Origin: Octopus sinensis
Taxonomy: Eukaryota
Reading direction: 5' to 3'
Length of the DNA: 64,000 nt
Assembly (NCBI RefSeq): GCF_006345805.1
Contig: NC_043003.1
Coordinates: 92,132,001 to 92,196,000, forward strand
A model generated the notes under the pieces. That model was not told the DNA's origin. It made no database searches and saw only the letters and a program-made list of their open reading frames with translations. Shown in pieces: positions 8,540 to 62,590 of this stretch (within the stretch, counting starts at the first letter, position 1; every line of letters starts with the position of its first letter). Made by a program: the position numbers and the translations under genes.

Positions 8540-9427
8540 GTTTAAATATTTGTTGTGCAAGATTTTTTATGTGAAGTCGTGTGTTGAAACAGATATTGTT
8601 GTATTTCGAATGGTCATTTTGCCAGTTTAGCCAATAAAACACACGTACTATATTTTTGTGTTACTTTGCTTCAGTGTTATTTATTTTTACATTAATCTTA
8701 ATCTTATTTCGGCCAGAGTTCTTTCGTCACACTCCGTGACCGCATCAGTGGTCCTTTGTTTTCTTCTTACTTATTTGTGTCTCTCCTTACTAACCGTCAG
8801 CAATTTTGTATTTCTATTGTATGTCTTCATTTGCGCATGCTTATATCTCTATGTGCGTTTATGTTTATTTAGTGTGTGTATGTGGGGGATGCTTGTAATA
8901 TTTGTATCTTCTGTTTATATATGTTCATGTAATTTGTAATTTTATATGTTCATGTAATTTGTTCATGTAATTTGTATTTTGTATTTTGTGCTAAAACTTT
9001 CATGTGCTCAGAACAAGCCAAACAATGTTTTATAACACGTCTGTTTCATAATAGTCATCAGGCACAGCCTACACAGCATAACGAACTAAAAATTACATGA
9101 ACATATATAAACAGAAGATACAAATATTACAAGCATCCCCCACATACACACACTAAATAAACATAAACGCACATAGAGATATTAAGCATGCGCAAATGAA
9201 GACATACAATAGAAATACAAAATGGCTGACGGTTAGTAAGGAGAGACACAAATAAGTAAGAAGAAAACAAAGGACCACTGATGCGGTCACAGGAGTGTGA
9301 CGAAAGAACTCTGGCCGAAATAAGATTAAGATTAATGTAAAAAATAAATAACACTGAAGCAAAGTAACACCAAATATATAGTGCGTGTGTTTTTATTGGC
9401 TAAACTGGCAAAATGACCATTCCGAAT

Positions 9428-13430: not shown

Positions 13431-13699
13431 AGGGTACTTGTGCGTGTATCTATGTGCATTGCACAGTTTAAGTTTTCTTAATAGGAAAGTAATAGAACCA
13501 ACAGTCTGATCTATTCTTGAATGGCCAAGTTTATCTACAAACTATTTCTGAATCCTAAAGCATAACAAAAGCCAACCTTATATACAAAGAGTAGGTTTTC
13601 GGAGCCACAGGTGAAATTTGATTTAATCTTAGATATTTCATATTGTTTAAAGTGGAACAAAATGTACAAGAACGACCGTAAAAATAATCAACTTATCAA

Positions 13700-15690
13700 A
13701 GAAAATTTTAAGTATTTTACAAACTAAAATTCTAGCAAAGGGGTTAAAGTTTACACAAAACCCTCGCAAATCGAACCCGAATGAAATTAAGGATAACATT
13801 GGATTTCTGCTGAAAATTACGCCTCACAGAAGCACTTCACAACTACATCGGGGAAGATGACTCAATAGTAAAAAACAAAAGCGAATACTATCCTACAAAA
13901 GGTAGAAATAAAGCACTTGATGCTTTTTATTAACACATTACCAATTATGGTATAGAAGCGATCACTTTCATAATTGCAGCACTCAGATTCATAATTGCAG
14001 CACTCAAATTCATCCTACTGAACAGCTATTTCATGTTCGATACAGTTTACTATCGATAAAAATGTGGAATTGCAATGCGAAACCGAGCTGCTCCAGTGAT
14101 TGCGAACCTTGTAATGGGTTACCTAGAACTTGAAATATACCAATCATCACTACAAAAATACGATACCTCATTTCATTGCTATTTAAAGGAGAACTGGAAG
14201 AGGTATTTGGACGATTGTTTTATACTTTGGAAAGATAGCATAGACAAACTCCTCGATTTCAAAATAATGCTTAACAATACAGCAACATACAATTCACCAT
14301 GGAGCACAGCAGTAAATAACTGCATTTTCTTGACATCCTAAATAAAATAGTCAATAACCATATCGAAACAGACATCTTCTATAAACCTACAGGTTCTAAA
14401 TAATACTTATTATTCAACTCATGCCACCCCAAACACATAAAAATTAATATACCTTATAAGCTAGCGAAAAGAATCTGTACAATAGTTTCGGACACCTATA
14501 CTCGTGAACGAAGACTCCGTGAACTCAGATCTATACTAATCAAAAGACATTACACAATATCATCAATAAATGATGGCATTAAACAAGCTAAGGAAATAGA
14601 TATATGAGCATTAAGGGAAGTTAACCGAAATACTACACCAGACTTAAAAATACCCCCATACATCGCCACACATAACCCTAGAAACAATGAAGCCTTCAAC
14701 ATTATCATCCAAAATCTACCCATCCTCACAGAAGATAAAACAATGAACAAAATTTTAGGCTCACATAAAATTATCAAAGGCAAAATGCAACCGAAATCAT
14801 TGAAAAAAATATTAAGCAGCGCAAGACTATATCCATTAACAACGGAACCAAAAGTGAAAAAATGTGGTCGACCAAACTGTGGTACATGCTTCCACCTTTT
14901 GGAGGGTTCAGAATTCCACTTTAAACAAGGTGAAATATTTAAGATTAAATCAAATTTCACCTGTGGCTCCGAAAACCTACTCTATGCCATTACATGATTA
15001 GGGTGTGGTAATCATTATATTGGCCAAACAGGAATATCACTCCGTCGAAGAACTACTCTCCACAAAGAACAAATCCGCCACCCACAATACAGACAGATAC
15101 AGGTCAGTGAACATATAGAAAGGTGTGTTAGAAACCTTAATCCTAATTTTCTAAATTTCCACTTCTATCAATGTTCACAGAACACCTCAGTAAAGCAAAG
15201 AATGAATAAAGAGGCAACTTTCATCAATAAATATCTTCCACAATTCAATATGAACACATACCTTAATACAGAACACTATAAACCTTTCAATTAATACCAT
15301 TAACCCCCATACATCCCATAAACCATTCACATTACAAATTTATATCTACCAAATCCAGAATTACTTACCTCCCTTATACATAATCTTTTTACTCAGGGAC
15401 TAGTAGACCCGACACCGTTCGGTAATCGGTACGCATTCAAAGCAGTGATCAGTAATTTTACGAAACCGGTATGCCTTTGAATCTCTTTAACAATTCACAA
15501 TAATGACCTTCATTACCTTTATTCCTACCTCAGTTCATCTAATTGTACATATGTATCATTACTTTTCGTAAAAACCTTTACTTTTTTATTTCCAATGTGC
15601 ATTTTCGCTTATTTTTCTTCCTACTTTCCCCTTACATTTCGACGTGTAGTTTCTATTTTCTTTTTGTTACATTTTTCTATTCTATTCAAT
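13700..15690 (+). mobile_element. Decayed Penelope-like element (Neptune-type Cys-rich linker): RT, GIY-YIG and 3' pLTR
   Basis: GIAM..AAPVIANLVMGYLE, WKRYLDDCFILW, TDIFYKPT, CGRPNCGTC, NLLYAIT*LGCGNHYIGQTG; stops and frameshifts. Confidence 0.9.
15435..15482 (+). ncRNA. Minimal type I hammerhead, G3:C8 core variant, in the PLE 3' end
   Basis: attcaaagca GTGATCA GTA attt TAC GAAA ccgg TA tgcctttgaat; ~10-bp bulged stem I. Confidence 0.75.
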
Positions 15691-15832: not shown

Positions 15833-16113
15833 AACAATTGCAGCGTAGAAGGTGTTTATAAGCCATTTAAGAAACACACAAAAACCGTTAGATTAACTTC
15901 AACATTGAAATTTAATTTGCCAAAATATTTTCGTCGCTTTGAGACCGCGACCTGTTCACTGACAACATTCCGTGCTTTATTTTTATCGGTGAACACGTCG
16001 CGGTCTCAAAGCGACGAAAATATTTTGGCAAATTTAATTTAAATGTTGAAGTCAATCTAACGGTTTTTGTGTTTCTTAAATGGCTAACAAACACCTTCCA
16101 CGCTGCAATTGTT
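15833..16113. repeat. Fold-back palindrome 1 (arms ~125 bp)
   Basis: 15833-15959 is the reverse complement of 15989-16113. Confidence 0.9.
15917..15965 (-). ncRNA. Minimal type I hammerhead, G3:C8 core variant
   Basis: ttgtca GTGAACA G GTCGC ggtctcaaa GCGAC GAAA atat TT tggcaa. Confidence 0.7.
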
Positions 16114-30270: not shown

Positions 30271-30648
30271 TATTAACAACATATACTTAATGTATATGCC
30301 TTATGTATTTTCCGGTGGCTGTAATAGCGTGGTGGAGTATATACGCTCTTAAAGTGCCGGCTGGTAAAGGACTTCAGGGTGATAGGCAGGCGAAATAACT
30401 CTCTCTCAATCCCGTTTCAGAGTGATGGACATCGGTTGTTTCGCCATTTTTGTGGCTTGACAACATCATGTACCCGCCAGTGTTGAAGGTAAGTCACCTA
30501 GCCAGTCTGTGACTTATATGCTCATGGGGTATAAAACCATGTGCTGACCTACCCCAAAATTGCATACCTAAGAGAAAATTTACATATGAATTAAAGGCAG
30601 CTCTTCTAGAATAAATATTAATTACACATACTTAATGTATATGCTTAT
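30271..30648 (-). mobile_element. Terminally redundant ~345-bp non-coding unit with a hammerhead-like fold
   Basis: Direct repeats 30271-30304 and 30616-30648; fold at 30423-30468; TA arrays flank. Confidence 0.6.
30423..30468 (-). ncRNA. Type I hammerhead-like fold, U3:A8 core with A6U change
   Basis: tgatg TTGTCAA GCCA caaaaa TGGC GAAA CA accga TG TC catca. Confidence 0.6.
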
Positions 30649-47424: not shown

Positions 47425-47792
<368 letters not shown>

Positions 47793-50719: not shown

Positions 50720-51685
50720 ACTTCACTAAAATGAACGACATCCTGAAAACACACAAACTCATCAAATGCAAAAAAAAACAAGACAAATCGCTAAAGAGAC
50801 TACTAAAAAATGCGAAGCTTTACAAAACAACCACGAAACCAACGGCTGAAAAATGTGGATGTCCAAGCTGTGGAACCTGCCCCAACCGCTTCAAGGTTCG
50901 GATTTCCTTTTCAAACAGGGACAGAGGTTCACAATTAAAACTAGTTTCACTTGTGCCTCTGAGAAAATAATTTATGCAATAACCTGCTCGGGTTTCGGAC
51001 ACAACTATATTGAACAAACGAGTATGATCTTAAGAAAGAGAAGCACTCTACATAAAGAGCAAATCCGTTTCCTGCAATACAGACAAATTCCTCTCAGTGA
51101 ACATATATAAAAATGTGCAGATAACATCAACCATTATTTCACAGTCTTCCCTTTCTACCAGTGCAAAGACACAATCTCTCAACTAGAACGTTTAAATAAA
51201 GAAACTTTTTTCATTGAAAAATACAAAACACTTCTTAATATGCACGCATAACCAACTTTTATCTTTTTACATATTTCAATTCACGATTACATCACTGTAC
51301 ATAAATCCCCTCACTAAACAAGGTTTTTGAAACGTTTTCTCTGTCTGTACACATATATAATCCCCTTCCATTACCGAAAGCTAAACAGTCATCTCCCTTA
51401 CTCACAACAATAAAAATAATAACGACAACCAATTACCTCCCTTTATTTATCTACTTGTGAAGTCATTCACTCGTGAATTTCATCAACATGGACAAACTTT
51501 CTTCTTAAGAAAAATATATATATTCAAATAAGTAAAACAATATCATGAATAGCGATAGCGAAACCGGTCGATATATTAAAAATTAAATTAAAACTATTTA
51601 AGTGTGCGTATTTTCCTTTTTTAATTTCTTATATACATTACAACTCACCACGTGGGGATAATCGAAATTCCTCTTTTCTGTTATA
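50720..51685 (+). mobile_element. 5'-truncated Neptune-type PLE (GIY-YIG and 3' pLTR)
   Basis: CGCPSCGTC, IIYAITCSGFGHNYIEQT..LHKEQIR..YRQIPLSEHI; homologous to 14740-15260. Confidence 0.85.
51540..51574 (+). ncRNA. Minimal type I hammerhead, A3:U8 core variant
   Basis: atatc ATGAATA GC gata GC GAAA ccgg TC gatat. Confidence 0.7.
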
Positions 51686-51691
51686 TATATA

Positions 51692-51859
<168 letters not shown>

Positions 51860-61522: not shown

Positions 61523-61776
61523 GCATCTTTATCTTTTAATTGTCTCTGTCATTGGACTGTGGCCACGTTGGAGCATCGCCTTGAAAGGTTTTAGTCGAAC
61601 AAATGGTCCCATGTATTTATTTTTTTCGTTTTTGGATTCGGTTTGCAAGATTCTTTATGTGAATTCGTGTGTTGGGGCATATTTTGTTGTGTCTGGGGAG
61701 AGTCATTCTCTTTTAGTGGCTTATTATTTAACACACTCACCGGTAAAGTTTGCACTCATTTACTTATTTATTTTTC

Positions 61777-61813
61777 CTAAAATTTTCGTTGCGTCTTGCA
61801 ACCTTTTCAATAG
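61777..61813 (-). ncRNA. Ultra-minimal hammerhead-like fold, U3:A8 core
   Basis: cta TTGAAAA G GTTGC aagac GCAAC GAAA at TT tag; neighbouring 61642-61690 resembles 8553-8602. Confidence 0.55.
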
Positions 61814-62590
61814 TCGTTGGCTCTCTCCGGCGAAAAAGCTAGTATAAAGACTAGGATAAAAAAATCCTTGTTTACCAGGATATTATTTTCACTCGACCGC
61901 ATTCTTTTTTTTTTTGATGTTTTCTACAACAGAATATTACCAAAAGTAGACCAAATCTTATTTTCTTCGATAATTGCTGACAAACTTCGCCCGAATATTT
62001 CTTCCAAAACTAAGGCCCACTCACTCGCGATAAAAAAGAAAGAAAAAAGAAAACTAAAACAAATTAATGTAAAAGGAACAGTAATCCTAACAATCAACAA
62101 ACGTTCATTACGTAGACTTTTATAGCTATATGACATTTTTGTTTCAAAGAGAAAGAAATGAAATGCCATGTCCACGCTGTTATAAAGGACATCGTTGACG
62201 TAAGGAAAGAGAAAGCGAAGAGGAGGGTTTTAAGCAATCGTTTTACTTTTGAATGGCGACTGAAACCGACTTCGGACTTAGTTTGTCCCACATCGATGTC
62301 TATCAATAGTTACAGCAATATGATTCTTTCTACTGTAGGCAGAAGGCCTGAAATTTAGGGAGAGGGGGGTAGTTAATTACTTCGATTCCAGTACTTGACT
62401 GGTACTTTACTTTATCGATCACGAAATGATCTAAGGCAAAGTGGGTCTCTATAGAATTTGATCTTAGAACTTAAGGAATCGGAAGAAATGCCGTCAAAAA
62501 TTTTGTCCGGGAAACTGCCTTAATAATAATAATAATAATAATAATATAATAATAATAATAATAATAATAATGATGATGATGATAATAATA

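Follow-up and report, generated by a model that had tools for sequence, protein, structure and literature searches.

A variant hammerhead motif in relics of Penelope-like elements

The stretch of Octopus sinensis DNA analysed here (64,000 nucleotides, referred to as the window) contains, in the 3' end repeat of a decayed Penelope-like element (PLE), a minimal type I hammerhead motif in which the core pair between positions 3 and 8 is A:U in place of C:G. The features of the window that bear on it are collected in Table 1, in which family A is the PLE family of the motif at 51540 and family B that of the motif at 15445.

Table 1. Coordinates of the hammerhead motifs and their host elements in the window
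Feature	Position	Strand	Basis or details
Minimal type I hammerhead, A3:U8 core pair	51540-51574	+	Sequence; descriptor scan and cofold; covariation
Palindrome ACCGGT (A15.1-C-CG-G-U16.1)	51563-51568	+	Sequence; homodimer MFE equals double hammerhead
5'-truncated, frameshifted family A PLE with 3' end repeat and tail, ending in (TA)n	50728-51698	+	91% nt identity to L187 over 50728-51682; tail match to 51698
Broken coding remnant: Cys-rich linker and GIY-YIG endonuclease	50731-51224	+	tblastn 57-58% aa, E 1.5e-43; translation
Second family A hammerhead, A3:U8, loop GAUU, stem I of 6 bp	47544-47580	-	N3 at 47574
Miniature insertion of its own, in which an inverted end repeat (47481-47636, minus) is followed by a direct tail of 44 nt (47641-47684, plus)	47481-47684	.	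Self-BLAST, alignment
Family B PLE relic (RT, linker, GIY-YIG, end repeat) with stops and frameshifts	13650-15690	+	Sequence comparison
Family B hammerhead, G3:C8 sub-lineage	15435-15482	+	G3 15445, C8 15450, A17 15471

Stem I of the 51540-51574 motif consists of 5 bp between ATATC (51540-51544) and GATAT (51570-51574), and its core reads A3 U4 G5 A6 A7 U8 A9, with A3 at 51545 and U8 at 51550. Straight after A9 comes stem II (GC-GATA-GC, 51552-51559), of 2 bp with a GAUA loop, then G12-A13-A14 and the palindrome, which would make a 6-bp intermolecular stem III in a dimer; C17 is 51569, and cleavage is predicted at 51569/51570. The letters that define a hammerhead core (U4, G5, A6, N7, A9, G12, A13, A14, A15.1:U16.1 and H17) are all present, stems I, II and III surround them (stem III as a dimer only), and the 3:8 pair is of the Watson-Crick type, as A:U. 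The consensus letters C3 and G8 are the ones replaced, which is the variant itself, and natural U3:A8 hammerheads fail the same letter test. Type I topology with a palindromic vestigial stem III, the dimer being the cofold MFE, corresponds to the min-HHR of PLEs; the motif lacks the additional base following A9 and the long stem II that are typical of min-HHRs, though not present in all of them.

Only a single register fits the motif. A structural descriptor allowing any paired 3:8 finds 4 matches in the window (15445 G:C, 47574 A:U, 51545 A:U and 61810 U:A), whereas 100 locally shuffled windows give 0.04 on average, and shuffling the non-core letters of the motif rebuilds the stems in 0 of 2000 trials; the motif is therefore not a chance occurrence. 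A loose pattern (TGANNA..GAAA) was uninformative, with 182 matches against 113 expected. No Rfam hammerhead model matches 51540-51574 in a local scan, even at E<=10, nor does a whole-window scan report a hammerhead there, its miRNA matches elsewhere being driven by microsatellites. Taken together with the copies across the genome described below, the sequence and the descriptor comparison bear out the A3:U8 hammerhead that the sequence-only reading had proposed at this position, and the observation proves real and more extensive than the window copies alone suggested. Two other places in the window also deserve mention. The only Rfam hammerhead match in it (HH9, 30423-30468, minus strand, 27.4 bits against a gathering threshold of 52) looks like the decayed form of a U3:A8 hammerhead in which A6 has become U, and 61773-61815 on the minus strand (N3 61810) is a further minimal hammerhead-like motif with U3:A8, an AT palindrome, a 3-bp stem I and a stem II of 5-6 bp with an extra base.

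As for the second family A motif, it had been described as differing from the first in the stem II loop only; this holds over the 35 nt (GATT), but the motif is on the minus strand, and a sixth pair extends its stem I. The possibility that it is the inverted 5' arm of the 51540 insertion was rejected, as its insertion has its own tail and flanks. Being separate insertions on opposite strands, the two copies cannot pair on one transcript as dimer partners.

The 51540 motif stands about 295 nt downstream of the broken GIY-YIG ORF remnant, and the claimed homology of its host to the PLE at 13.6-15.3 kb is confirmed, the GIY-YIG parts being 57-58% identical in amino acids and 68.6% in nucleotides. 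A near-full family A copy (L187) contains an RT (RVT_1, E 7e-7) with the DKG motif, a CX4CXXC linker and GIY-YIG, an inverted truncated copy on its 5' side and also a one-sided tail. EN+ PLEs have one ORF with RT and then GIY-YIG, which is what is found here (RVT_1 in L187, GIY-YIG at E 3.6e-4 in a related copy), and the CX2-5CXXC linker of Neptune/Nematis is present between RT and EN, the tree including no reference PLEs; read from sequence, the layout of family A is that of EN+ Penelope-like elements, possibly of the Neptune/Nematis type, to judge by the linker. In the 4 copies that keep the 5' end repeat, the cleavage site lies 137-167 nt upstream of the ATG. Tandem layouts place the hammerhead upstream of the ORF (L224, L231, L245 and L240) or show two same-sense hammerheads (L255), and the location is that of min-HHRs, i.e., in the pLTR of the PLE, at the 3' end and, in tandems, upstream of the ORF. 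Among the copies fetched, none of family A was seen to keep two intact end repeats or a full-length ORF free of breaks; the copies seen are without exception old relics that differ by about 8%, and the 51540 copy itself is a dead, lone relic. The family is also contained in contigs assembled from runs labelled organisms A to D, with no change at 51545 or 51550 among the matches listed. An intron beginning after the hammerhead (GTAAGT at about +27) was considered and rejected, a conserved acceptor not having been seen.

Several neighbouring features and related loci were recorded along the way. The segment 49400-50230 is a purine-rich block, a decayed minus-strand element with no match to the PLE queries, and 8707-9320 and 15929-16060 are fold-back (inverted) repeats, seen as mirrored pattern matches. 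L213:1581-3942 holds an open frame of 787 codons without a Pfam match. Two three-copy tandem arrays, L197 (G000:C2:15873150-15874267) and L125-L127/L198 (G000:C1:150622824-150624006), with units of 544 and 575 bp, carry family A and family B hammerheads in a retrozyme-like layout; G1.1 is changed in the former and position 17 is G in the latter, and they are probably inactive duplications.

Genomic extent and covariation of the 3:8 pair

The A3:U8 pair is fixed in hundreds of family A copies. A3 and U8 are kept in 30/30 best-matching loci (from the best 40 of 1575 candidates, own copy included), and a family A pattern with positions 3, 7 and 8 left free has 501 matches in the genome and 0 in controls, a hand count of 100 listed among them giving 95 A:U, 2 A.C, 2 C.U and 1 G.U. 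Conservation among copies, the lack of which the sequence-only reading had named as refuting its claim, thus extends for A3:U8 to 95 of these 100. The backbone pattern shared by the families yields 4,705 genome matches against 12 in controls, 1,050 of them (against 1 control) with A3:U8; a tight pattern with G or C at both 3 and 8 yields 188 (against 1), which divide, over the 100 listed, into 49 C:G, 46 G:C and 5 mismatched; and the remaining backbone matches are mostly U:A among the matches listed. It is only the tight pattern that separates G3:C8 from background, since a loose one had fewer matches than its control (423 against 976). Minimal hammerheads of the canonical C3:G8 type, with different stems, are numerous as well (9,553 against 681 in the control). 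A metagenome scan with the A3:U8 pattern gave 4 of 119, among the matches listed, with stem I >=4 and stem II >=2, which were treated as chance; L282, a metagenome locus with the pattern and with 4 bp in both stems, could likewise be chance.

Other hammerhead-like sequences were met in the same searches. In L066, L075, L077, L078, L084 and L209, which are U3:A8 or U3.G8 subfamilies with an unusual junction, stem I pairs only with an extra base before position 3 (or with 1.1 missing). A short tandem-repeat family with units of about 350 bp and stem II GAGG..CCTC (L085, L086, L170, L196, L206-L208, L425 and L426) has both C3:G8 and U3:A8 forms and CCGG or CTCGAG palindromes, and no PLE ORF was found beside it. 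L423 (G000:C4:153131102 and 153135694) is an inverted pair of hammerhead-like motifs with G3/G8 unpaired and without stem I.

The sequence-only reading had assigned G:C to the first family and A:U to the second. The family B copy of the window does belong to a G:C sub-lineage, but its family as a whole is mostly A3:U8: the 100 listed of 130 copies comprise 88 A:U, 6 G:C, 2 A.C, 2 G.U, 1 A.G and 1 U.C, and the 31 rows nearest to the window copy comprise 20 G:C, 9 A:U, no A.C or G.U and 2 others. When positions 3, 7 and 8 are masked, 43 copies still sort largely by their 3:8 state, with six linked sites (p<1e-3), so that G:C and A:U are both master-lineage states in family B. Half-changed states appear in 5/100 (family A) and 6/100 (family B) listed copies, scattered and never as a subfamily.

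Beyond families A and B, the 3:8 pair is intact in 19 of 19 hand-picked subfamily representatives (A:U 9, U:A 6, G:C 4), in which all six pairs of stem I show two-sided changes, and 94.3% of cells pair, as opposed to 66.0+-2.3 in shuffled and at most 40.7% in slid controls, a figure favoured by relatedness and by the hand choice of rows, some of which were fetched by core patterns. The second pair of stem II is broken in 5 of the 19. Over 78 distinct fetched sequences, again partly fetched by core patterns, 3:8 is Watson-Crick in 71 and U.G in 3. The 15 fixed core letters are all kept in 12 of 18 rows and 12-14 of them in the others, a conservation that is inflated and partly circular (many rows were found by core patterns), while the row flanks are 30-91% identical, and 30-59% between families. 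Families A and C share A3:U8 with flanks that are 45-59% alike and with compensatory changes in stem I. Position 17 is linked to position 3 as well: G3 always comes with A17 (15/15 distinct sequences, 18/18 listed) and A3 with C17 or A17 (42/45), as expected if 3:17 pairing, which blocks cleavage, is avoided; C3-G17 trapping is discussed in PMC3884650. The U3 families, which carry A17, count against a strict rule of this kind.

The sequence-only reading had also suggested mapping the 3:8 state onto an RT/GIY-YIG phylogeny, and its contention that related PLEs use different 3:8 pairs is upheld by the G:C, U:A and U.G families found in the same clade as A:U. The RT+EN tree (LG+G4, rooted on an unlabelled distant element) covers the 16 of 46 elements with the best coverage. 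Support is 99 for A+C (A:U), 98 for G+B (G:C with nested A:U), with B nested at 99 among G:C families, and 92 for D+E (U:A, U.G), the branching among these three groups having a bootstrap of 49. Since a single clade of all A:U copies is rejected (dlogL 115) and the A:U members of family B are nested among G:C families, G:C and A:U have been exchanged at least twice, and because its neighbours are G:C, the parsimonious direction inside family B is G:C to A:U. A single purine-3 clade is not rejected (AU p 0.335 with 2000 replicates, which are too few; bootstrap 49 for the alternative), and a GIY-YIG-only tree does not separate G:C from A:U within family B. In family E, two of three copies are C:G, both 77-80% like L189 in the end repeat and with too little ORF for the tree; the family probably includes C:G, which would put all four pairs in one clade.

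Dimer fold and the question of self-cleavage

We consider it probable that the motif is the end-repeat hammerhead of a PLE family in which A3:U8 has replaced C3:G8, and that it would still cleave itself slowly after C17 when two copies pair through ACCGGT, perhaps helped by the protein of the element; a lizard PLE hammerhead is protein-assisted (PMC11167929). Two element RNAs would pair through the palindrome to make the intermolecular stem III; the cut, slow and dependent on the dimer and probably on protein, would set the element RNA free from tandem or read-through transcripts and give it a defined 5' end. Selection, we infer, would have acted on master elements, as the active fold requires a 3:8 pair of the Watson-Crick type. 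In the cofold prediction for the 51540 homodimer, the double hammerhead is the MFE (-15.3 kcal/mol, pair probabilities 0.64-0.73), and in the same background a G:C swap places it 5.6 and a C:G swap 1.2 kcal/mol behind misfolds; misfolding of these swaps is a possible reason for A:U in family A. The monomer folds only at -2.6 to -3.6 kcal/mol and cannot close stem III.

Some other results count against an active ribozyme. Stem II has 2 bp and stem I is A/U-rich, with no sign of loop I-II tertiary contacts, and the predicted MFE is the active dimer for just 12 of 40 distinct natural copies and for 0 of 6 copies with the GAUU loop, for which a stem II-swapped dimer is preferred. Stem-loop II (51552-51559, 47559-47566) is nearly self-complementary, so that two molecules of its GAUU variant can pair over 8 bp, and a direct repeat of ATAGCG spans core and loop. 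Nearly all copies run 65-115 nt beyond the cleavage site, so that the RNA templates were mostly uncut at the 3' motif. In the lizard PLE, the hammerhead was dispensable for insertion in vitro and no RNA-seq reads had their ends at the site (PMC11167929). Of the 27 matches of a truncation screen, 10 were truncated, the other 17 retaining hammerhead sequence whose register had shifted. The 3 simple truncated copies within the tested 21-nt range all begin at about +2 of the cleavage site, and the other 7 are fold-backs with direct-arm junctions at +6 to +13, two of them having an inverted arm that ends near +1 or +2. The +2 starts are a weak hint of cutting in vivo, and microhomology between ATATAT and the (TA)n targets can account for them.

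Is the motif, then, kept for something other than cutting? It may, although we find this unlikely, persist as a folded RNA element (a signal for PLE protein binding, packaging, translation or dimerisation) that no longer cuts usefully, the 3:8 pair covarying as part of a junction shape that is recognised. The mostly uncut templates would suit such a signal, as would the lizard PLE hammerhead, mutants of which had no effect on insertion in vitro (PMC11167929); non-cleaving roles were also left open by Cervera and de la Pena (PMC4209133), and when all double mutants of a type III hammerhead were scanned, activity was restored by C3G/G8C alone, the other doubles, A3:U8 among them, remaining low (PMC9901934). 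Nevertheless, G5, A6, A9, G12, A13, A14, A15.1:U16.1 and a non-G 17 are all retained, as catalysis needs, and the invariable company of G3 and A17 looks as if a blocking 3:17 pair were avoided. Cleavage of the monomer under protein chaperoning, with a palindrome that is incidental or serves other pairing, seems quite improbable to us: it would fit the mostly single genomic copies and the lizard hammerhead, which cut only with protein (PMC11167929), but ACCGGT is kept across families A-G, and a monomer cannot close a stem of 2 bp over a loop of 2 nt, in keeping with the weak monomer folds given above. Finally, the idea that A3:U8 is a product of neutral decay in a dead hammerhead, fixed in a single master element and then spread by amplification, is very improbable and largely refuted by compensation, masked sorting, flank comparison, tree and covariation: decay most often turns G into A and C into T, the copies are old relics and PLE clades without canonical hammerheads proliferate well (PMC8557442), yet A3:U8 is common to families A and C despite their divergent flanks and compensated stem I, occurs also in family B, in a different clade of the tree, and its half-changed states never form a subfamily.

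Relation to known hammerheads and significance

The 3:8 pair of the hammerhead positions the general-acid ribose. Przybilski and Hammann are said to have found in 2007 that any Watson-Crick pair at this position was somewhat active in two type III ribozymes, depending on the context, and many PLE hammerhead variants were reportedly presented by Lunse in 2017.

Natural U3:A8 hammerheads have been described (Perreault 2011, PMC3088659; Schistosoma Cercyon PLEs, PMC4209133) and, like the present families, exemplify natural 3:8 covariation, whereas the available text of these sources names only U3:A8 and the octopus families have a purine at 3 and a pyrimidine at 8 (A:U, G:C) as fixed family states. 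A 2-bp stem II, as in the 51540 motif, was described as common in the former (PMC3088659). The metazoan PLE min-HHRs of Cervera and de la Pena (2014, PMC4209133), known to cleave weakly as dimers (PMC4209133, PMC6765202), share with the motif the type I topology, the palindromic vestigial stem III, G10.1:C11.1, the end-repeat position, the occurrence mostly as lone copies in truncated elements and the frequent inverted pairs. They differ from it in their 3:8 pair, which is C3:G8 or U3:A8 (A3:U8 is absent from the readable rows of Fig. S3), in their stem II of 4-8 bp (though Fig. S3 lists short forms) and, typically, in an extra base between 9 and 10.1; three or four 3:8 pairs in one clade of one genome, as seen here, also set the octopus elements apart. 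G3:C8 rescue is documented in vitro (PMC9901934, PMC11167929), and unlike these engineered swaps, the present one arose in nature and was amplified, and the ribozyme that carries it shows no evident tertiary contacts. The elements themselves resemble the Neptune/Nematis EN+ PLEs in their single ORF, DKG RT, CX4CXXC linker, C-terminal GIY-YIG, inverted 5' copy, one-sided tail and (TA)n targets, and their hammerhead core would escape the CUGANGA descriptor used in that work (PMC8557442). Searches of literature text found no report of a natural A3:U8 hammerhead, the scope excluding figures, bioRxiv supplements, the source data of PMC9901934, Lunse 2017, Przybilski 2007, Hammann 2012, Nelson 2008 and Arkhipova 2017, and none stands in the available text of PMC6155905, PMC7151607, PMC13725137, PMC10085705, PMC7229834 or bioRxiv 10.64898/2026.07.22.740005. 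These text-based searches, figures apart, are consistent with the remark of the sequence-only reading that A3:U8 is rarely reported.

The finding concerns a known ribozyme with an altered core pair, housed in a type of element that is likewise known, and points to neither a new ribozyme class nor a new kind of element. A wider scenario is conceivable and is offered tentatively: one clade may have sampled all four Watson-Crick 3:8 pairs through wobble transitions (C:G to U.G to U:A, and G:C to G.U to A:U), the pair that can fold correctly being set by position 17 and the weak stems, and A3:U8 might be a natural core that is active and has evolved repeatedly, unseen by CUGANGA descriptors and Rfam; many "hammerhead-less" PLEs may then carry such cores. 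Standard descriptors and Rfam models do miss cores of this sort, and counts of animal hammerheads and claims that a PLE lacks one are consequently underestimates. Laboratory scans disagree on how far the 3:8 pair can be swapped, and evolution now supplies natural matched pairs: the G:C and A:U forms of family B, in otherwise near-identical ribozymes, together with their U:A and U.G sisters, make a ready test panel for this position, and the same panel suits asking a more basic question, namely, are PLE hammerheads selected for cutting at all?
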